DNA of 52,548 nucleotides from an uncultured Methanosarcinales archaeon (GTDB lineage: Archaea > Nanobdellota > Nanobdellia > Woesearchaeales > CAZYIM01). Shown in pieces: positions 2,846 to 51,137 of this stretch. The position numbers and the translations under genes are program-made. The notes under the pieces were generated by a model that ran no database searches, was not told where the DNA came from, and saw nothing but the letters and a program-made list of their open reading frames with translations. How positions within the stretch are numbered: position 1 is the first letter of the stretch; the number at the start of each line of letters is the position of its first letter. The stretch is from NCBI GenBank assembly GCA_964647565.1, contig CAZYIM010000015.1, positions 1 to 52,548 on the forward strand. The letters run 5' to 3'.

Positions 2846-2965
2846 TGGACCCGTCGGGAAATTCAAGCCAAACAATAAAGTTCAAGCATTTTGAACCCGA
2901 GACCCCCGCCTCTCTTGTACAGAGTATTGCAAGGGCGGTATTCTACCAGACTAAACTACAGGCCC
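2846..2965 (-). tRNA. tRNA-Ala(UGC) in the 16S-23S spacer with two introns (37/38: 2912-2927; 59/60: 2860-2889)
   Basis: Acceptor GGGCCUG/CGGGUCC-A, anticodon arm CCGCC-CU-UGC-A, T arm UCGGG-UUCAAAU-CCCGA after intron removal. BHB helices CUUG/CAAG and UUCA/UGAA. Confidence 0.93.
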
Positions 2966-3021: not shown

Positions 3022-4591
<1,570 letters not shown>

Positions 4592-18171: not shown

Positions 18172-18390
18172 ATGATTGGATTTCTCAGAAAGCCATTCAC
18201 TAAGAAGGATTATCTGACTGGCAAGATATCCCAATATCATAAAGAGCAGGATGAATCTGCCCAAGAACCGGATTATAGACCTTATATATTGAGACAATAT
18301 GAGGATCTGATTGAATATGTCTGTGAAGAATATAAACCAGGATTTCATCGAGAATACTATCGTTTTAAATCTGAGAAACAATTGCCTTGA
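18172..18390 (+). CDS. Small hypothetical protein
   Basis: 72-aa ORF after an AT-rich TATA-like tract. Confidence 0.45.
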   Translation: MIGFLRKPFTKKDYLTGKISQYHKEQDESAQEPDYRPYILRQYEDLIEYVCEEYKPGFHREYYRFKSEKQLP

Positions 18391-22993: not shown

Positions 22994-24055
22994 ATGTTCG
23001 GCAAAATTGGGAATTTTTTAAAGAGAACTCTTTTGTTAGGTGTGTTATCTTATTCATTGATAGGTCCTTCGCACCTGCATGGCCAGCAGGAAACTCCATT
23101 GCCTGGAGTCATTCTAGCTCCAGATTCTACAGCCAAAGTCACTCTTGACTGTCTTACACAAAAGCTCTTCTCTTATGAGAATTTTAATGCTGTTGATACA
23201 TCTTTAAAGATTATAAATGTTGATCTTTGTTTTGGTGATGATTCATTAAGTTCAATATACTTTAACCATGTAGATCTGGTTGCACGGCCTATCAGGGATC
23301 ATTTCCTGAGCAAGAACATTCTGGTGAACTTGCAGTTTGTCGATTCCCTTAATTTTGATATTTACAAACCCGGTGAGCATATGGGTGTGAATGTTGTTGG
23401 CCTGGAAAAGTGGATGGACATTTTTGCCACTCATAGCGGGATGGATACTAGTAGTACCATAGGCTTCTTGAAATATCACTTGTCTGGCATGTTTATGCAG
23501 GGGGTGAGCTATAATAAAACAGGATTTGCCGCAATTAATGTAGCTACCAAGGATCAGAGGCTTACATATTTCCTAGAAAAACTCATGGTGAGGCCAAAAC
23601 TTGCCGATAAGATACTTACTGCTGACTTGATCAGACAAGCTAAAAACGAGATAAAGATTTTTACTGTAATGAACGCTCTTTTTGAGTTCCCTGATAACTA
23701 TACACCCAGAAACCTGGCCAGAAGCATTGTCCATGATCTGCATCATATGTTTGGCATTTATCATTCCTTTGAGTTTACTGATGATCCTGTTGCAGATTAT
23801 CTTGAGACTGATCCTGCAGTGCCTAATCTGATGAGTTATGATGTTGGTGCGACGACAAAAGAACGGCCTCTAGGAGCAGATTTGAATGAATTTCAGGTCA
23901 AGATCCTCCATAGTTTTCTTAACAAAGGTAAGGTGTACCAACAGCTTAAAGTCGTGGACTTTAATTACCATAAATATATTGTGTTCTTGCAGACAGCCAA
24001 CAATTATCATGCACAGCCTTATGAGAATCATCCCTGGAAGATGCTGATGTTCTGA
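22994..24055 (+). CDS. Secreted metzincin-like protein (HDxxHxxGxxH, Met-turn NLMSY)
   Basis: Signal peptide, HDLHHMFGIYH and NLMSY. Confidence 0.65.
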   Translation: MFGKIGNFLKRTLLLGVLSYSLIGPSHLHGQQETPLPGVILAPDSTAKVTLDCLTQKLFSYENFNAVDTSLKIINVDLCFGDDSLSSIYFNHVDLVARPIRDHFLSKNILVNLQFVDSLNFDIYKPGEHMGVNVVGLEKWMDIFATHSGMDTSSTIGFLKYHLSGMFMQGVSYNKTGFAAINVATKDQRLTYFLEKLMVRPKLADKILTADLIRQAKNEIKIFTVMNALFEFPDNYTPRNLARSIVHDLHHMFGIYHSFEFTDDPVADYLETDPAVPNLMSYDVGATTKERPLGADLNEFQVKILHSFLNKGKVYQQLKVVDFNYHKYIVFLQTANNYHAQPYENHPWKMLMF

Positions 24056-34502: not shown

Positions 34503-34617
34503 AGTTTCTTTTTGATAAAAGAAAACTCAGCTTACTGTCGCTCGCAAGTTTTCTTTTTGATAAAAGAAAACTCAGCTTACTGTCGCTCGCAAGTTTTCTT
34601 TTTGATAAAAGAAAACT
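34503..34617. repeat. Tandem mini-array: 3 palindromic 25-26-bp repeats with two identical 19-bp linkers (45-bp period)
   Basis: AGTTTTCTTTT-TGAT-AAAAGAAAACT at 34503, 34547 and 34592; linker CAGCTTACTGTCGCTCGCA. Confidence 0.9.
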
Positions 34618-34645: not shown

Positions 34646-35125
34646 ATGAAACCTAAACCTTCTTTTCGGAAAGTAATCAAGGAAGAGCTCGCTTCAAAAA
34701 CAGCTAAAGACTTGATGAAAAAGAAATTTGACAAGATAGATGTTGATATTCCTATCAGGAAAGTGGTTAGCATCTTTGACAAAAAGAACCTTCATGTCTT
34801 GACAGTTTTTGACGGTAAGACTTTTGTTGGAGAGATATTTAAGGTCGATCTTCTTAAATTGGTTGTCAATGTTGATAAGGTACCTCAAAAAGAGATTCTC
34901 GAGATGGGTTTCCATATGGATTATGGTTATTTTGCAAAGACTGCCAAAGATGTAGTTACTGAACATAAGGTTACTGTCTATGAGGATGACCTGATTGAAG
35001 ACATTGCACAGATTATGCTCAAGAATGAAATATATAGCTGTGTAGTGCTTGATAAAAAAGATAATATTGTGGGCGTAATTACAGAGACTGAGATCTTAGC
35101 TGAGATCATGAAACAGGGCAAATAA
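34646..35125 (+). CDS. CBS-domain pair protein
   Basis: TAKDLMKK..VGEIFKVDLL and TAKDVV..VVLD..IVGVITETEI. Confidence 0.85.
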   Translation: MKPKPSFRKVIKEELASKTAKDLMKKKFDKIDVDIPIRKVVSIFDKKNLHVLTVFDGKTFVGEIFKVDLLKLVVNVDKVPQKEILEMGFHMDYGYFAKTAKDVVTEHKVTVYEDDLIEDIAQIMLKNEIYSCVVLDKKDNIVGVITETEILAEIMKQGK

Positions 35126-40900: not shown

Positions 40901-43569
40901 CATTTTATGTTGATACTGTATTTCCCAATATAACCGGTCAGGATCCTGCAAATAATTCTCAAAGAAATCATAATGGTACAAATGTATCCTTCTATGTTAA
41001 CTACACTGAGAGTTATGTTGATTACATCCAATTATTTTGGAATTCCAGTCAATCAGCTTGGACTAATATTAACTTTACTGGTTGCCCGTCCGGAGCAGAT
41101 CAACAGTGTGCTCCAAGTATTAACCTTTCAACCTTTCCTGACGGTACATTTATCTGGTATTTCTTCAGGATTCTCGATCTTGCCAATCAGTCAGAAAACA
41201 GCACAATATATAATTTTGAATTAACATGTGTTTCTAATTGGACCTTGAATACTACATGGTCTGCATGTGATACTTCAGATCTTCAATATAAAAACTACAT
41301 TGACCAGAATAATTGTCCAGCTGCAGTTCCCCCTGATCCTATTAATCAGAGCTGTAACTATTGCACCCCGACCTGGATGAATGCTAATGAGAGCTGCAGG
41401 ATCAATGATAGTTACCTTGTCGGTTATTCTTACACTAATTCTTGTTGTGCTGATACTGGTTTGCAATCAGATTGTACAATTCCTAATAATTCATCTGCCA
41501 GCTGTAACTACTGTACCCCGAGTTGGGAAAATGTTAACAGCAGCTGCAGGATCGATGACACATTTGCAATTGATTATTCTTATAATAATAGTTGTTGTGC
41601 AGATACAGGTCTGCAATCTGACTGTACAATCCCTAGCAACACATCTAGTACTTGCAACTACTGCACGCCTACATGGCAGAATATCAATAGCAGCTGCTAC
41701 CAGAACGAAACCTATTCGGTAGGATACTCTTACAATAACACTTGCTGTGCCGACACTGGATTGCAGACAGACTGCATAATAACTGACAACTCAACAGATT
41801 ACTGTGATTATAATAATGATAGTCTTTGGGGTAATGTCAGCAATATAAACACTAATCTGGAGAACTTGAGTGTCGCCATAACAAATAACATAACAATAGA
41901 GTTTAAGCAGGATAATGATACAGTTGTTGAGTTGGAACATAATACGTCAGAAACTCCTTTGAATATCTTTAATGTAACCATAGAGAAACAGGATAATTCG
42001 AGTGAAATTGGCAGTCTTATTATTATAGGTATAAACCTTTCTGAGAATAACACCAAGACTGTTTTTGTTGATCGCCTGAACACTTCCATATTTTCTGTTT
42101 GTATCAAAGATTCTGCGATATTAAACATCTCTGAGATAAGCGCGGCATGCAACAGCACCAACGAAACCATGGTACCCTGTAATGGCACATTAAAGAATGG
42201 CTACAACTGTTCTTTGTTGGCCAATAATACCCGATATAGAATATCTGGGCTGGTTCATTCAGGAGCAGTTGAAAAATCATGTTCAGAGAATTGGGATTGC
42301 ACTGGATGGTCTGCATGTGTTGGTAGCTCCCAAACAAGGACATGTACTGACTTGAATGCTTGCGGTACATCCTCTGATATGCCCTCATTGATCCAAGCCT
42401 GTACGCCTGGCGGGGGCGGAGGCGGTGGAGGTGGCGGAGGGGGTGGCACCTCAGAGAAAGAATATTCCAAGCTTGTCTCTAGAATCCTTGCTAGGGATGG
42501 TCTGGATCTTGAGATTGACAAGAAGTTGATCCCTGTCAATAGGATCTTGGTTTCTGTAATCAATGATGCTTCCAATATCAGGATAAATGTTGAGGCCTTT
42601 GATAAAAAACCTTATGGAGTTACCAATGAGTTTGATAGATTATGGTTTGCATATCTTAAGGTTTTGGCAATTGATCTTGATCCTGCTAACATTCGGAATG
42701 GCAAGATTTTTTTCTGGGTCAACAAGAGTTGGCTGCAGAATAATTCTCTTGCTAAAGATGAGATTGCACTTTTCAAATACATTGATCATAAATGGATAGA
42801 ACAACTTACTAAATTCTTAAGTGAGGATGAACTGAACGTCTATTATGAGGCTGAGACTGCAGGTTTTAGTTATTTTGCCATAGGCAACCAAGTTATTGAA
42901 ACGCCTAAACCTCCTGTTGTGGTAGTTGAACAAGATGAAAACAAGACAGTAATTGAAAATAAAACAGATGTGGTTGTACCAGGCGGTGATAGTGGAAGCA
43001 TAATTAAACCACCTTCTGAATCGCCAGATGTTGATTGGTCCAATTCTTTTATAGTATTTATTGTTGTAGCCATGATTGTGGGAATACTTGTGATTGTTAT
43101 TGTTAATCTGTATCAAGCCGGAAAAGAAAACTATACAGATAAGGATTTTGAAAAAGGCCTTGAGAAATATAACAAGATGCTTGATGTCTATAATCATGTT
43201 TCAGTTGGCAAGAAGAAGCTCTTATATGCTAAATTGAATGATATGTATAAGGAACTGGCACCTCAGATCAGTAAGAAGATGATTAAGCAGATTCAAGCAG
43301 AGATTGTCAGAATGCAGAAATTAATTTCAGAGAAAGACTATAAGGACAGTAGACGTGAATATGAAATTATTCTACGTGATTATAAATTCTTGACCAAATC
43401 AGATAAAGTTAAGCTATACTCCACTCTATATAGAGCACATGAAGATCTGATGAAGCTTCATAAAAAATTGGTTAAGCCAAAAAAAGTCACAAAACCTAGG
43501 CCCAAAAAATCCGCGCCAGTAAAAAAAATACCCAAGGCGAAAGCTTCCAGACCTGTGAAGAAAAAATGA
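37993..43569 (+). CDS. Large membrane-anchored subtilase (S8) with Ig-like, Cys-rich and PGF-pre-PGF domains
   Basis: Signal peptide. Triad VVDTGID / HGTHCAG / GTSMSAPHVAG. Poly-Gly linker, AGFSYFAI, C-terminal TM and a basic cytoplasmic tail. Confidence 0.92.
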   Translation: MRFTIANKLIVFLIILVLVASISALAKPNKTPFFSSNNDLITQSNTQQDISVIIVLKFQPLSSTASEIKSGYRVSLEKYRERIDKLMGRRQPIVPRGYNEMISQEQQEHELREIGADSAYRGFMSRLSTEKLNNLRENQQKLDDLQDQIKTHIFERQEALVKSDQSQISSIVEDCGGIVVGDSVVISSVYAIIPSSCLDNIKNNDLVADVYENKKQQINLNISVPTTLATTWYANGFNGSGWDIAVVDTGIDESHPALIVSSAAVFHATGQLDADYDDNFTSTDDFNGHGTHCAGIVASQNTTFKGIAFGADLINAKFGWRGLDGNGYGYDSDSFDAMDWAINTAGADVISRSFSMCSIGSADCALARYLDAVVDDLQVHAVNSAGNSGPSGSTVGGVAYNAFSVANMHDSISIARTDDFLLSTSSRGPTVDWRVKPDITAPGTIISSCAHDWETSDDFISYSGTSMSAPHVAGAVALVLDYKGYNWDPKAVRALLFNTAENNYFNDPTAFGWGYIDLDHAYVHRDDVILENLTEAEHLYYKGNVFTGDKATLVWNRHVIYAGSEEPSTLYALNDLDLYFYNESNNYVINSSLSGSDNVEQVKADTNYTDVILKVHAYTLNFNHGSDTEEFALAMEENFVQMTGPNISIEQSLPALASNQTNFTIIATASNLGDIYAHNVNVTLSLPNGLAILSGANPQQLGSIANGSSKNATWILNASTGEITYQNVTVFFNTSSFGENESEESSEGSVFVTGGDVNVESNGTSDQASCDDNQSVNEITGIGPVGEYHLAGGNITLMINWTGWHNGDDNHWAFFMNTSAQPIGTCKSYYNDSPYLTYTLNCSITIPNNATIGLNVINITVDDKNGYCIPGENGVDAEGFTTFNISQGPNISIQSPVDNRYYTSSRVLLHITTGEDVQWIRTSFDNASNVTECNDCNTTMRNFSFLTEGKHSLDVYTLDYLSNTYYRNATFYVDTVFPNITGQDPANNSQRNHNGTNVSFYVNYTESYVDYIQLFWNSSQSAWTNINFTGCPSGADQQCAPSINLSTFPDGTFIWYFFRILDLANQSENSTIYNFELTCVSNWTLNTTWSACDTSDLQYKNYIDQNNCPAAVPPDPINQSCNYCTPTWMNANESCRINDSYLVGYSYTNSCCADTGLQSDCTIPNNSSASCNYCTPSWENVNSSCRIDDTFAIDYSYNNSCCADTGLQSDCTIPSNTSSTCNYCTPTWQNINSSCYQNETYSVGYSYNNTCCADTGLQTDCIITDNSTDYCDYNNDSLWGNVSNINTNLENLSVAITNNITIEFKQDNDTVVELEHNTSETPLNIFNVTIEKQDNSSEIGSLIIIGINLSENNTKTVFVDRLNTSIFSVCIKDSAILNISEISAACNSTNETMVPCNGTLKNGYNCSLLANNTRYRISGLVHSGAVEKSCSENWDCTGWSACVGSSQTRTCTDLNACGTSSDMPSLIQACTPGGGGGGGGGGGGGTSEKEYSKLVSRILARDGLDLEIDKKLIPVNRILVSVINDASNIRINVEAFDKKPYGVTNEFDRLWFAYLKVLAIDLDPANIRNGKIFFWVNKSWLQNNSLAKDEIALFKYIDHKWIEQLTKFLSEDELNVYYEAETAGFSYFAIGNQVIETPKPPVVVVEQDENKTVIENKTDVVVPGGDSGSIIKPPSESPDVDWSNSFIVFIVVAMIVGILVIVIVNLYQAGKENYTDKDFEKGLEKYNKMLDVYNHVSVGKKKLLYAKLNDMYKELAPQISKKMIKQIQAEIVRMQKLISEKDYKDSRREYEIILRDYKFLTKSDKVKLYSTLYRAHEDLMKLHKKLVKPKKVTKPRPKKSAPVKKIPKAKASRPVKKK
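41353..41802 (+). repeat. Three in-frame 150-bp repeats encoding a 50-aa six-Cys module
   Basis: CNYCTPxW.N.N.SC...YSY.N.CCADTGLQ.DC.I occurs three times. Confidence 0.9.
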
Positions 43570-44588: not shown

Positions 44589-45731
44589 TTAACTACGGTT
44601 CATCTCTATTTTACTGTGCGTCGTTTGGACAACAGGGAATTCCGTCATTACATAGCGCATGGCTTCCTTGAGTAGTTTGGTGTTTTTATAGGTCTTCAGC
44701 TCTAGTAAATAATATGGTCTTTTAGCATTGATAAAATCAACAGAAACCAAAAGCTTCGGATCATTAGCAATCTCTCTTTCAAAGCGGATCCTTGGCGATC
44801 TAGTTTTTTTATGTATCAAGGATTTCAATAATTTTTTTGCCTTTTTATCCTTAATATCATCCAAATTAGTTGGCATTTTCTGGTCCAGCACAAAAAACAA
44901 TTTTTCTTTCTTTATAGGGAAAAACCTATGCTGGCTCATCTCTGTTTGAGTAATTTCACTAGCCCTTGTAAACACGATCTGTGCTGTTTGCATCCAGCCA
45001 TTTCTATCTCGGCTGCATCTCTGTCTCAATCTTAACTTCGGACTTCTGCCAGAAAAAATCGGAATTTTACTATCATAATAAATATCATTATACATCAAAG
45101 GTCTTGAAAATCTACTGATATTGAAACGTCGCGATATCTGATCAAGAACATCTTCTGGCTTTTTCTTGGCACTGATAAAGAATCTTGATTCATAATAAGA
45201 TTCAAAGCCAAAACCAATCTTTTTTAACTTTTTCTTGAAAAGTAAATATCTTAGCTCATTAAAACCAACCTCTAATCCTGAGACTGCAAAGACGGCAATT
45301 ATAAAACTCACTGCCGCAAGAATCCATACAGGTGTTTGTGGATAAATAGCAATACCTAGAAGCATAAGAACTGCATAAATAGGGTCGTGGATCAAAATAT
45401 CTTCTGTAAGGCTCTTAAATCCACCCCTAAACGCCTTGGCAAAATAACTTTTAAAGCTTGCTCGTTTCTTTTTTGGAGTTGTTCGATAGACATCTAATGC
45501 TTCCTTGAAATGCGCAGGAAAAAAACCAATCTTTTCAACAATTGGGCCTGTCAAAGCCAAGACAATAGGTACAGTCGCAAAAAGTCCGACAATGGCTGTA
45601 CCGATGATGTTGATGACCATTGCGATTGCCTCATCCCTGCCAAATCTCTTGAAGACATCCCAGAACGGATTCTCAGGTACATGGATAGGGGTCTCCGAAA
45701 CCTCTTTTGGAAGAAGATCAATATCAGACAT
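44589..45731 (-). CDS. Membrane protein with a C-terminal CYTH/VTC-like domain
   Basis: Four N-terminal hydrophobic segments, then YESRF, YNDIYYD, LRLRQR and LLELK. Confidence 0.6.
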   Translation of the reverse strand: MSDIDLLPKEVSETPIHVPENPFWDVFKRFGRDEAIAMVINIIGTAIVGLFATVPIVLALTGPIVEKIGFFPAHFKEALDVYRTTPKKKRASFKSYFAKAFRGGFKSLTEDILIHDPIYAVLMLLGIAIYPQTPVWILAAVSFIIAVFAVSGLEVGFNELRYLLFKKKLKKIGFGFESYYESRFFISAKKKPEDVLDQISRRFNISRFSRPLMYNDIYYDSKIPIFSGRSPKLRLRQRCSRDRNGWMQTAQIVFTRASEITQTEMSQHRFFPIKKEKLFFVLDQKMPTNLDDIKDKKAKKLLKSLIHKKTRSPRIRFEREIANDPKLLVSVDFINAKRPYYLLELKTYKNTKLLKEAMRYVMTEFPVVQTTHSKIEMNRS

Positions 45732-45772
45732 CTTTTGAATAATAGTGTGGAGAGTTTATAAATATTTCTTAT

Positions 45773-46156
45773 AGAAAATATGGGTCTCTGGGGACTGAAA
45801 GTTCTCAGAAATTCAACTCCTTTGAATTTGGTTCTTCGGAGTTGAATTCACCCGGACTGTTTCGAAACGCTTTTGCTTTCGAAACTCGAACAAAACGTAG
45901 TTTTGTGAAGATGTTCGAGTCCGTAGCATAGTCTGATGTCTATGCTGGCGTAAGCTTAAGAAAATATGGGCCTCTGGGAACTGAAAGTTCTCAGAAATTC
46001 AACTCCTTTGAATTTGGTTCTTCGGAGTTGAATTCACCCGGACTGTTTCGAAACGCTTTTGCTTTCGAAACTCGAACAAAACGTAGTTTTGTGAAGATGT
46101 TCGAGTCCGTAGCATAGTCTGATGTCTATGCTGGCGTAAGCTTAAGAAAATATGGG
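45773..46156 (-). repeat. 2x186-bp tandem repeat made of the tRNA-Val 3' end interrupted by hairpins
   Basis: Units 45773-45958 and 45959-46144 differ by 2 substitutions. The anchor agaaaatatggg recurs at 45773, 45959 and 46145. Confidence 0.93.
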
Positions 46157-46267
46157 CCCACCCGGACTCGAACCGGGGATCAATGCCTTTCATAAGCACA
46201 ATTTCTTATGCTCTGTAAGGGCACTGTCATAGCTTCTAGCCAATTAAGGTCACTAGACCATGGGCCC
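46153..46267 (-). tRNA. tRNA-Val(UAC) with two introns (D-loop 18/19: 46234-46250; 37/38: 46189-46213)
   Basis: Acceptor GGGCCCA/UGGGCCC-A, GUGCC-CU-UAC-A, CCCGG-UUCGAGU-CCGGG. BHB helix CUAG/CUAG in the D-arm. Confidence 0.93.
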
Positions 46268-46339
46268 ATAAGTGGTGACACGTAGCTTAGCGTGCACACT
46301 TATTCATAAAAGACTCCTATTTGCTTTAAATAGTTTTCT

Positions 46340-47605
46340 TTATTTCTTTGCACGTTTATCCTTGAAATGCCAGAAATGATGACCTCTGAAATAGGCCTCT
46401 GTTACATGTATAAAATGGTGTTTTTTTAGTTCAAGGACTTTTTTCTCAATCAAGTGCAGGGTCTTGGTGTAAGAGATGAAATAAAGAGCTCCAACAACTA
46501 GGCCTAGTGCTGAGAGCAGTTTGAATGTGCTTTCAAAACCAATCCTGGTAATGATGGATTGAGCTATCATGCAGATGATGAAAGTGCCAATTCCATAACT
46601 TGACTTTAGTAGGGCATTGGCAAGGCCATGTTCCTCTTTGGGCGTCATCTTGACGACAATAGACGATAGCTTTACATTTGCGTTATATGTGTTGAATCTA
46701 ACAAATGCCGCAGAGATGAAAAGACCTATTGTGTTGGTAAATGTGCCTATCAGGTAGTTGCCGACTGCGCCTAGTAAGAATCCTGTTGGGATCAAGAACT
46801 TTGATTTAATACCATCGGCAAGCTTGCCTATTGGTATCTGGATAAATGCCATGAAAAGACTGAGTACAGAGATGAAGCTTCCTATTGCAACATAGCTCCA
46901 AGCTAGGTTTTCCTTAAGGAATATAGGGAAGAAGGTGCCAAAAAACGAGGATAGCATAAAAGCCATCATCATTGTTACCCATACCTTCATGAAACTCTTT
47001 TTCTTGATGACATCCATACTTTCCTGGTAGAATGACATCTTCTGCTCTTTTATCTTAGTGCCTTTGATAAAGCCCACCATCACTATCGGTGGTATGAAGA
47101 TATATGCTGACATTGAGAAAAGAAGCGTGTAGCCTGCTGAACCTATGATGACGCCTGCAAAATAGGGGCCCAGGAAGGCTCCTGCAATCGCCAGCATGAC
47201 CATGACTGAAAAATATCTGCCTTCTTTTTTAGGAGGACAAAAATCAAATAGGCTTGCTGTCATACCTGTCCAGAAGACGCCCATTGCAGCCATTCCTAGG
47301 ACATTAAGGATTAGCAAAGGCACATATGCTTTTGCATATATCAGACCTGAAGCAAAAATAAAATTCATGATAATTCCTGTCAGGATCAGCTTTCTCCTGC
47401 CAATCTTGTCACATTTGGCACCCGCAGTTATCCTAAGGACTGCATCTCCGAGGCCTGCTATGGCCACAAAGAGTCCGACTGTGGCGATTGAATAGCCAAG
47501 GTCCTTGATATAGATGGGAAAGAAGCTTCTGCCCAGGCTGTTGCCCAGCGGAAGCAGGAATGCAAGGATGTAAATGATGATAAGACTCTTGTTTATTTTA
47601 AACAT
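46340..47605 (-). CDS. MFS transporter
   Basis: 12 TM. GAKCDKIGRR and GKLADGI motif-A copies. His-rich C-terminal tail. Confidence 0.9.
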   Translation of the reverse strand: MFKINKSLIIIYILAFLLPLGNSLGRSFFPIYIKDLGYSIATVGLFVAIAGLGDAVLRITAGAKCDKIGRRKLILTGIIMNFIFASGLIYAKAYVPLLILNVLGMAAMGVFWTGMTASLFDFCPPKKEGRYFSVMVMLAIAGAFLGPYFAGVIIGSAGYTLLFSMSAYIFIPPIVMVGFIKGTKIKEQKMSFYQESMDVIKKKSFMKVWVTMMMAFMLSSFFGTFFPIFLKENLAWSYVAIGSFISVLSLFMAFIQIPIGKLADGIKSKFLIPTGFLLGAVGNYLIGTFTNTIGLFISAAFVRFNTYNANVKLSSIVVKMTPKEEHGLANALLKSSYGIGTFIICMIAQSIITRIGFESTFKLLSALGLVVGALYFISYTKTLHLIEKKVLELKKHHFIHVTEAYFRGHHFWHFKDKRAKK

Positions 47606-49807: not shown

Positions 49808-49913
49808 AACTAATCACCAATAGCTACGGGATAATAGGTTGTATTTATGTTTTTTGATAGCTTTAAGCACATCTCAGAAAGTTTTAAATAAAAACACCTC
49901 TCTCTGGTTTTAA

Positions 49914-51137
49914 ATGCTATTAGAAACTGTCTTCCTTTTATTGGCCGGCATCCTGTTCATAGGTGTGCTTGGAGAGGTTATTTTCAGGAAGACCAATATA
50001 CCTGACGTCATTTGGCTTCTTGTGATAGGTATCATCATTGGGCCTGTGCTTAACTGGACATCTTATCTTGCACTTAAGGATGTTGCACCATTCTTTACAA
50101 CATTTGCATTGATATTCTTGCTTTTCGAGGCAGGTATCAATATAGATATTCATGAATTTTTTCGAAGTGCTTCTAGAGGTATGCGATTGAGCATCAGCAG
50201 CTTTATCCTTTCAGCAGCAGTCACTTTCGGCATCTGCATGGCACTTGGTAAAGGTTTTATCATATCCTTGCTTGCAGGAACTATCCTGGCAGGAGTGTCG
50301 TCAGCTGTTGTCCTGCCTATCATCAACAACATGGAGATTTCCAAGAAGACCAAGATATCCCTTGTTTTTGATTCTGCCCTTTCAGATGTACTTTGCATTC
50401 TTGGAACTGTTACCCTTATAGAGATTTTTACTGCTGCAACTGCAATTGATAGCATGGGTGTGGCGAGAAATATGCTTTCATCTTTCTTAATACCTTTGGC
50501 CTTTGGAGGCTTTGCAGCCTTGTTATGGAACAAGATATTGCTTAAGCTTGAGAACCATCAATATATCCTAACTTTGGCTGTGATGCTTATTGTATATTCA
50601 CTATCCCAGATGTTTGGTGGTAATGGCGCAATTGCCTGCTTGATGTTTGGTTTGTTGTTAGGAAATTCAAAGAAAATTGTTGGATTGTTCAAGAAAGTCG
50701 AGCAAAAGAAGCATTCAATAACCCGTGCAGGCAGGGAAGCCTATTCGGAAGTTGCCTTTTTCATGAAGACATTTTTCTATGTATATCTGGGCATTTTGAT
50801 TAATTTCTCAGAACCCTTGAGCTTTGTTTGGGCTTGTCTGATCTTGTTGGGATTATACATGGTGCGTCCCTTGGCAGTATTTCTTTCGACACGAAAGGAT
50901 ACCCCTGTTTCCGAGGTCAAGATAATGGAAACTTTAATTCCTAAGGGTCTTGCAGCAGCTGTGCTAATACAGCTTCCAATAGAGGCTGGTATTCCTGGCG
51001 CAGAATCCCTTGTCAACATAACACTGGGAGTCATTCTGATCAGTATTGTTCTTTCTTCTGTTTTCATCTATTTTATCAAGCATGATTTCTACAAAGGAAT
51101 ATTTCCATTTCTACATAAAAAGTATTTGAAGAAATAA
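49914..51137 (+). CDS. Cation/H+ antiporter (CPA1, NhaP2-like)
   Basis: IPDVIWL..G...GP, LLFEAG, SSAVV.P, DSALSD, FFYVYLG and PKGLAAAVL motifs. Confidence 0.9.
   Translation: MLLETVFLLLAGILFIGVLGEVIFRKTNIPDVIWLLVIGIIIGPVLNWTSYLALKDVAPFFTTFALIFLLFEAGINIDIHEFFRSASRGMRLSISSFILSAAVTFGICMALGKGFIISLLAGTILAGVSSAVVLPIINNMEISKKTKISLVFDSALSDVLCILGTVTLIEIFTAATAIDSMGVARNMLSSFLIPLAFGGFAALLWNKILLKLENHQYILTLAVMLIVYSLSQMFGGNGAIACLMFGLLLGNSKKIVGLFKKVEQKKHSITRAGREAYSEVAFFMKTFFYVYLGILINFSEPLSFVWACLILLGLYMVRPLAVFLSTRKDTPVSEVKIMETLIPKGLAAAVLIQLPIEAGIPGAESLVNITLGVILISIVLSSVFIYFIKHDFYKGIFPFLHKKYLKK

Follow-up and report, generated by a model that had tools for sequence, protein, structure and literature searches.

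Hairpin-rich inserts with copies of the tRNA 3' end at tRNA-Val and other tRNA genes of a woesearchaeal archaeon: a candidate family of miniature att-bearing elements

Transfer RNA (tRNA) genes are classic landing sites of integrating viruses and plasmids. The window analysed here is positions 1 to 52,548 (in nucleotides, nt; forward strand) of contig CAZYIM010000015.1 of assembly GCA_964647565.1, from an uncultured DPANN archaeon of the order Woesearchaeales in its GTDB lineage. Directly behind the tRNA-Val(TAC) gene of this window, and on the same strand, stand two near-identical units of 186 base pairs (bp), each of which repeats the 3' end of the tRNA in pieces set apart by palindromes. 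The unit is most likely a member of a lineage-specific family of non-coding, hairpin-rich inserts at tRNA gene ends. Such inserts recur in the genome, are tiny and built of hairpins, and duplicate the ends of tRNAs without breaking the gene. To the more specific reading, that the unit is a small non-autonomous insertion element with repeats like those of attachment (att) sites, doubled by recombination between these repeats, we give about an even chance. Below, G000 denotes the genome studied (2.7 Mb, 86.9% complete), C15 the contig of the window, other C numbers the other contigs of G000, and other G numbers relatives of the same order.

Tandem Repeats Finder places the array at 45768-46158, with a period of 186, 2.1 copies, 98% matches and a score of 759. 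Of the 186 positions, 2 differ between the units; both fall in the last 13 nt of unit 2, one inside hairpin D (hpD; hairpins A to C are named likewise) and the other inside the last piece of tRNA sequence. Direct repeats of the tRNA end flank the insert, and the tRNA gene next to one of them is intact, which is the arrangement looked for in att-type insertions; the insert between the bounding repeats is 172 nt long and non-coding. Read on the strand of the tRNA (Table 1), a unit begins with the T-rich trailer, the motif GCTTACGCC, hairpin i, the antisense copy of the T-arm CGGACTCGAAC, hpA and the piece GTTCGAG, and continues with hpB, the piece AGTCCGGGTG, hpC, hpD and GGCCCA (positions 68-73). 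Hairpin A contains the tip hairpin CAAAAC..GTTTTG, immediately ahead of the tRNA-end copy. When hpB and hpC together with hpD are taken out of the downstream copy, GTTCGAGTCCGGGTGGGCCCA is restored with exact exon continuity. The GCTTACGCC motif could pair with GUGGGCC of the tRNA end by way of two G.U pairs. A preliminary description of this DNA, made from its letters alone, had reported the tandem array on the strand of the tRNA, and repeat finding and coordinates agree on it; the three ordered pieces of the tRNA 3' end, the 11-nt antisense copy of the T-arm and the two further hairpins that it listed were likewise located in both units. Its three separating palindromes (hpB, hpC and hpD) are also present in both, hpD in an imperfect form, as one conserved position is an A.C mismatch on the tRNA-sense strand and a G.U pair on the antisense strand, and unit 2 holds a second such position. 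The single open reading frame (ORF) over the insert, a basic frame of 66 amino acids with a GTG start that runs from the tRNA end through unit 1 (45999..46199, minus strand), is probably an accidental by-product of the repeat. Straight after the last repeat copy comes TTTATAAA (45755-45762, minus strand), about 24-31 nt ahead of the start codon of the next gene (ATG at 45731), and so the array stops at the point where the likely promoter of its neighbour starts.

Table 1. Coordinates of the features discussed. Positions without a contig name are those of the window (C15).
Feature	Position	Strand	Remarks
tRNA-Val(TAC) gene	46153..46267	minus	sequence, ARAGORN with introns, alignment, partial Rfam match
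Unit 1 of the 186-bp repeat	45967..46152	minus	trailer, antisense arm, hairpins, interrupted second copy of tRNA positions 53-73
Unit 2 of the 186-bp repeat	45781..45966	minus	
Bounding direct repeat GGCCCATATTTTCT, copy 1	46145..46158	minus	tRNA positions 68-73 and 8 nt of T-rich trailer
Bounding direct repeat GGCCCATATTTTCT, copy 2	45959..45972	minus	
Bounding direct repeat, copy 3	45773..45786	minus	decayed, GACCCATATTTTCT; native flank next
GCTTACGCC motif	46133..46141 (unit 2: 45947-45955)	minus	invariant in C15 and C32
Hairpin i, GCATAG..CTATGC	46112..46131 (unit 2: 45926-45945)	minus	missing from C32 copy
Antisense T-arm CGGACTCGAAC	46099..46109 (unit 2: 45913-45923)	minus	11 nt
hpA, ACAAAAC-TAC-GTTTTGT	46076..46092 (unit 2: 45890-45906)	minus	
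Piece GTTCGAG	46071..46077 (unit 2: 45885-45891)	minus	copy of tRNA positions 53-59
hpB, palindrome GTTTCGAAA..TTTCGAAAC	46045..46071 (unit 2: 45859-45885)	minus	at 59/60 of the tRNA-end copy
Piece AGTCCGGGTG	46035..46044 (unit 2: 45849-45858)	minus	copy of tRNA positions 58-67
hpC, AATTCAACTCC..GGAGTTGAATT	45996..46034 (unit 2: 45810-45848)	minus	11-bp stem, at 67/68 of the tRNA-end copy
hpD, TCTGAGAAC..GTTCCCAGA	45973..45995 (unit 2: 45787-45809)	minus	
T-loop intron loci	C19:49768-49916; C30:~34725-34857; C2:~23010-23198; C36:~18197-18320; C22:42253-42433		
5'-end duplication loci	C8:9926-10044; C19:~49905-50022; C26:36250-36412; C2:23198-23290; C36:18309-18426		

The copy number of two is that of the assembly. 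A search of public sequencing runs for this DNA gave eight DNA runs and no RNA run, and the four DNA runs that were aligned, all of them low-depth contig sets, leave 45394-46145 uncovered. An assembly artefact would touch the copy number only, a single real unit having been unrolled wrongly from the de Bruijn graph; the genome is a metagenome assembly, the repeat exceeds a typical k-mer length, and no independent reads span it. We nevertheless hold such an artefact to be very improbable, as the two units are not identical, the junction to the unique flank is distinct, and arrays of 2-3 copies with diverged spacers are found at other tRNA genes, both here and among the tRNA loci of relatives.

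The tRNA-Val(TAC) gene itself keeps an intact and contiguous 3' end (copy F1) and runs from G1 at 46267 to A73 at 46153. Alignment to two tRNA-Val(GAC) genes, those of contig C32 and of relative G010, shows that its anticodon is TAC, that its D-loop is enlarged by a 17-nt insert and that its anticodon loop holds an intron. On the practical side, the gene is easily missed by tRNA finders. ARAGORN in its default mode reports no tRNA in the whole window and, with introns allowed, calls the tRNA-Val gene and mistypes it as Thr; Rfam gives a partial tRNA match of 16 bits, below its threshold, and the whole genome has 11 matches to the Rfam tRNA model at an expect value (E) <= 1. These few matches are due, in part, to the frequency of T-loop introns. 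Additional tRNA genes of G000 were taken from a strict scripted search, a brute-force version of which was too noisy, and the resulting list of 20 genes is incomplete against the about 46 of a full archaeal set.

A second locus of the same design was found in G000. A single unit, with its parts in the same order, follows tRNA-Val(GAC) at C32:30691-30763 (blastn, 70.8% identity over 216 nt, E 4e-20). The tRNA-derived pieces, the antisense arm, GCTTACGCC and hpD are conserved between C15 and C32; in the C32 unit hpA differs in sequence and is retained as a hairpin, hairpin i is missing, and the copy of piece 53-59 is degenerate (CCTCGAA). The stems were compared base by base by script, as a MAFFT alignment had the arms of hpA out of register. 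In hpB 9 pairs were compared, of which 7 are identical and 2 changed on both sides, and in hpC 7 of 10 pairs are identical and 3 changed on both sides, so that 5 of the 19 pairs are altered on both sides, with no one-sided change and no broken pair. Besides these two loci, blastn of the Val unit in the genome returns one 39-nt fragment, 82% identical to part of the unit and located behind tRNA-Ser(CGA) at C1:107015-107052; the antisense T-loop copy in it agrees with the T-loop of tRNA-Ser, GATTCGAAC. Searches for the Val unit outside the genome gave no relative. None was found in 40 genomes of the same order, apart from one 22-nt match (E 0.007); the pattern of hpD occurs at 45 loci in metagenome contigs, none of which has the flanking pieces of the unit on inspection; the pattern of the antisense arm occurs at 39 loci in representative genomes (37 bacterial, 2 haloarchaeal), none with at least three further motifs of the unit; and two 15-mers occur at 48 and 29 loci (77) in viral contigs, none unit-like.

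The Val units belong to a habit found throughout the genome. Exact copies of at least 10 nt of a gene's last 25 nt, within 318 nt downstream, were found at 10 of the 20 tRNA genes examined in G000, against 84 of 5000 random sites. The distance of these copies from their genes is 45-110 nt. The shorter inserts, behind Ser, Leu, Gly and His tRNAs, are 45-90 nt long and follow a fixed plan, in which a purine-rich end motif adjoining the gene is followed by an imperfect inverted copy of the tRNA's last ~12 bases, then by a small tip hairpin, and finally by the second tRNA-end copy with a few trailer bases. A gene on C22 is followed by a 91-nt unit in two tandem copies. The inserts are also mirrored at the other end of the gene: at least five tRNA genes (on C8, C19, C26, C2 and C36) are preceded by copies of their 5' end, as duplications of 15-28 nt placed 71-135 nt upstream around hairpin inserts, and in two of these five inserts the end motif is reverse-complemented. 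The motif TGAACGT(G)AGTGAATG adjoins the tRNA end at the 3' side of the Leu gene on C3 (sense strand) and at the 5' side of the Ser gene on C2 (antisense strand). The modules that do not derive from tRNA are common to different tRNAs, while the arms always match the neighbouring tRNA. Downstream tRNA-end copies decay, as GACCCA in unit 2 of C15, as ACTCCCTGCA with one mismatch on C3, and with several mismatches on C36 and at locus L031; the contiguous first copy would therefore be the working tRNA end. The absence of related elements elsewhere, which the preliminary description had linked to a one-off neutral duplication, does not hold, given the C32 unit and this family of related inserts.

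Relatives of the same order carry comparable inserts. A direct copy of at least 11 nt was found at 4 of 26 tRNA loci with downstream sequence in 12 same-order genomes, counts that are drawn from the best-scoring and most canonical tRNA loci. One tip pattern (K1) is present in 8 of 401 genomes of the order, against 1 match of a reversed control pattern; it occupies 9 places in all, of which 6 are no more than 200 nt from the end of a tRNA gene. G000, G008, G069 and G078, which span different families, have the tip CAGCAAC..GTTGCTCG in common. The inserts are sporadic between congeners; G004, for instance, has two copies behind tRNA-Thr(CGT), and none of the matching genes in three genomes of its genus has any.

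This distribution bears on the possibility that the units arose by neutral local rearrangement, that is, by fold-back or template-switch errors at highly transcribed tRNA genes, with neither mobility nor function. Errors of this kind would yield the sense, antisense and sense order of the T-arm copies and the perfect palindromes, slippage would account for the tandem doubling, and the decay of the terminal copies would be expected. We consider it improbable, for the end motif and the tip hairpins are common to different tRNAs and to genomes of different families, the two diverged Val units share one layout with compensatory changes, and the elements are mirrored at both gene ends.

Folding of the unit was compared with that of shuffled sequence. 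As RNA, the sense strand of unit 1 folds with -61.5 kcal/mol (z -7.5; 0 of 200 shuffles as good) and the antisense strand with -69.9 kcal/mol (z -6.5; 0 of 200 as stable), and as single-stranded DNA the sense strand folds with -40.4 kcal/mol (z -8.7; 0 of 200 as stable). Folding so far beyond that of shuffled sequence makes the unit more than a product of chance. The tRNA and unit together reach z -8.3, and in their minimum-energy fold the 5' acceptor strand pairs with the last piece of the unit and the first 3'-end copy with the antisense arm. Such values might be expected of a functional structured RNA, either a 3' trailer co-transcribed with tRNA-Val and involved in its maturation or regulation, or a source of stable RNAs of about 186 nt that could pair with the T-arm. 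The position of the units on the tRNA strand directly behind the gene, with only a weak T4 run between, the compensatory stem changes between C15 and C32, the helix GGCUUAC:GUGGGCC, which favours the sense strand, and the short 3'-side relatives, for which the tRNA-sense strand, with its G.U pairs, gives the better fold, are all in keeping with it. As modelled, however, the antisense strand gives the more stable fold of the whole unit, and on it the A.C mismatches of hpD in both units become G.U pairs. Among the short elements (13 in number, minimum-energy folds), 8 of 9 at the 3' side fold better on the strand that reads repeat, motif, arm, tip and repeat, and so do 4 of 4 at the 5' side, where this strand is antisense to the tRNA. 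Polarity is a property of the element, whichever way the tRNA is transcribed, and the elements cannot all be parts of tRNA precursors. As the elements are also absent from congeners, their downstream tRNA-end copies decay and no Rfam family matches, a functional RNA appears quite unlikely.

Non-canonical archaeal tRNA introns with bulge-helix-bulge motifs occur at T-loop position 59/60, and intron 'transposition' has reportedly been proposed for Thermoproteales. The unit might accordingly be an intron-related intermediate, in which the stretch between the copies of the 3' part is or was a 59/60 T-loop intron, accompanied by an acceptor-stem intron at 67/68 and a duplicated last exon. The tRNA could then be made with or without splicing, and the locus would show an intron in the course of being gained or lost. 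Introns of this type, ending YGAR-AG|U, are common in G000 (tRNA-Ala of the window and tRNAs on C19, C30, C2, C36 and C22), and hpB, at 59/60 of the downstream copy, ends YGAA-A[CU]-AG|U, which is the local signature with 2 nt added. Similar hairpin modules recur across tRNA genes, and long T-loop introns occupy the same site in related genomes; in G010, tRNA-Val(GAC) at L020:1711-1915 carries a 130-nt multi-hairpin intron at exactly 59/60 without a first, inner copy. The pairing of the acceptor strand with the last piece and of the first copy with the antisense arm also suits this explanation.

Other observations do not fit an intron. The intact 3' end precedes the unit in the same gene, so that splicing is unneeded and the interrupted copy is not required for the tRNA, and the terminal copy GACCCA would mispair in the acceptor stem. 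The helix of the antisense arm runs uninterrupted across 59/60, the piece 53-59 of C32 is degenerate, and the short members of the family begin their tRNA-end copy at positions 60-63 and lack the motif. A strict scan for the bulge-helix-bulge motif (3-nt bulges, 4-bp helix) found none joining the required sites in both C15 and C32, with the limit that it recovered the canonical motif in one of six test tRNAs. Likeness between the G010 intron and the units is weak in global alignment, with z 0.8 for the C32 unit (105 of 500 shuffles as good) and z 3.3 for the C15 unit (3 of 500). Taken together, these points leave the intron-related intermediate an unlikely explanation. About 165 nt ahead of the tRNA-Val(GAC) gene of G010 is another tRNA, with a duplicated 3' end of its own.

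Enzymes that might move such inserts are present in the genome. G000 has 6 matches to Phage_integrase, and host integrases aimed at the same part of tRNA genes were found on C22 and on C33/C44. On C22 (42253-43750) the gene of a full tyrosine integrase of 409-431 amino acids starts 90 nt behind a tRNA. On C33 (26822-29250) tRNA-Ile is followed by the truncated N-terminus of an integrase, a homologue with 49% identity over 139 amino acids (E 2e-47), and by an ATPase-like ORF of 564 amino acids; a 12-13-nt copy of the end of this tRNA-Ile at C44:17793-17805, 118 nt from the contig end, is a probable far-end repeat. Three other kinds of element were considered for the inserts and are not supported: a casposon or Cas1-mediated insertion, as Cas1 (PF01867) has no match in the 86.9% complete genome; a retroelement-derived insert, as reverse transcriptase (PF00078) likewise has none there; and a miniature inverted-repeat transposable element or other transposase-driven miniature element, as no terminal inverted repeats were seen and the repeats, of 10-28 nt, are not fixed-length target-site duplications.

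On the reading that we favour, a mobile att-bearing mini-element, we infer the enzyme, the single-stranded or folded intermediate and the order of events. The inserts would arrive by site-specific recombination at the tRNA end, catalysed by tyrosine integrases borrowed from resident elements that integrate into tRNA genes, these being the only candidate enzymes found. They would be miniature non-autonomous att-bearing elements, or stripped-down remnants of such elements. The recombination machinery or a single-stranded intermediate may need the hairpins, and this requirement is proposed as the reason why the stems stay paired through compensatory changes. Tandem doubling would be secondary, with the 14-nt bounding repeats as the sites of unequal recombination or slippage, and the tRNA would be made from the first, contiguous 3' end, with the downstream copies as relics. 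Of the two readings offered in the preliminary description, the palindromic micro-element that targets tRNA and regenerates att-like ends is the best-fitting alternative, and the family proves wider than had been claimed.

A number of points weigh against this reading. No free or excised form of the inserts was seen. None of the 6 Phage_integrase matches lies on C15, and the 86.9% complete G000 has no match to reverse transcriptase, to Y1 transposase (PF01797) or to Cas1. The direct repeats vary in length across the family, from 10 to 28 nt, and no known integrative element is nearly as small as the inserts. The strands of the Val unit conflict, hpD favouring the antisense and GGCUUAC:GUGGGCC the sense strand. 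The mobility of the Val unit would rest on two loci, C15 and C32, with no relative outside the genome among the collections searched. Finally, an internal arm complementary to the local tRNA end is foreign to ordinary attP sites, and the model therefore fails to explain how the arms get re-tailored to each tRNA.

Several known systems resemble the array in part. In E. coli, 178-bp repeats behind the tyrT gene each carry the tRNA 3' end and yield the rtT RNA. The analogy drawn with them earlier is borne out in layout, as both arrays consist of tandem units of about 180 bp that follow a tRNA gene without a gap and contain the 3' end of the tRNA. It does not extend to homology: the two belong to different domains of life, the tRNA end is here split by palindromes and joined by an antisense copy, and a search of 45000-47000 against Rfam at E <= 10 gave no tyrT/rtT-type or other family match besides the partial tRNA and chance-level matches. 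Integron attC sites and the attP(+) hairpin of CTX phage are single-strand recombination sites that act in folded form. They share with the inserts an imperfect hairpin whose stem mimics the target, strand-specific pairing, and arrays at one chromosomal site; the targets here are, in contrast, many tRNA ends rather than one, the cassettes are empty, and a role of IntI or Xer is not indicated.

The attL and attR sites of elements with tyrosine integrases come nearest in arrangement. An example is the PYG1 island of Pyrococcus yayanosii, which is 21.4 kb long, has 44-bp repeats and is integrated in a tRNA gene (PMC9897764). Both cases have foreign DNA bracketed by a direct repeat of the terminal segment of a tRNA, an intact tRNA gene with a partial copy at the far end, and the possibility of tandem accretion, and integrase elements with a 12-13-nt tRNA-end repeat exist in G000 as well. 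The Val inserts differ in having 172 nt between the repeats, no coding capacity and no integrase (the insert neither encodes nor shows remains of integrase or other element genes), in their inverted target copy and nested palindromes, and in repeats of only 10-28 nt; the family differs also in its mirrored occurrence at both gene ends with strand-specific folding. In Caldiarchaeum, integration of an element at a tRNA gene was proposed in 2012 to be linked to scattered tRNA fragments and intron gain (PMC3293823). That element is described there as 1.8 kb long and recombinase-encoding, whereas the elements here are of 45-190 nt and non-coding. What sets the inserts apart from these systems is a length of 45-190 nt without genes, an inverted target copy, nested palindromes, occurrence at both gene ends and strand-specific folding; no description of such inserts was found in the open-access literature searched.

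Archaeal tRNA genes are oddly rich in introns. A broader proposal, which we regard as rather unlikely, is that DPANN archaea of this order harbour undescribed miniature hairpin elements which home to both ends of tRNA genes and are a route by which non-canonical introns arise. A folded, single-strand-specific site, with a stem copying the local acceptor end, would guide the homing; insertion would duplicate the tRNA end and leave the gene functional; and a later loss of the inner copy would turn the insert into a T-loop or acceptor-stem intron. The Val unit, with its near-intron at 59/60 of the downstream copy, would then be an intermediate caught in the act. If this were true, the elements would be the means, long sought, by which non-canonical introns reach archaeal tRNA genes; how such introns arrive is called an open question in a recent preprint (10.64898/2026.10.13.758758). 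If the inserts are mobile, they would represent a new niche for parasites within very small genomes and offer a concrete path from an insertion with a duplicated exon to an intron.

Some other features of the window may be mentioned. A spacer tRNA-Ala(TGC) gene at about 2850-2965 (minus strand) follows the 3' end of the 16S ribosomal RNA, near 3030, and has an anticodon-loop intron as well as a T-loop (59/60) intron, with a score of 21.9 bits for the Rfam tRNA model. At 34505-34617 a perfect 45-bp tandem repeat of 2.5 copies, containing the palindrome TTTCTTTT..AAAAGAAA, immediately precedes an AT-rich, promoter-like stretch and the start of a gene. A 150-bp repeat of 1.8 copies with 75% matches, at 41424-41697, probably falls in a coding region that has Cys/Thr-rich repeats.

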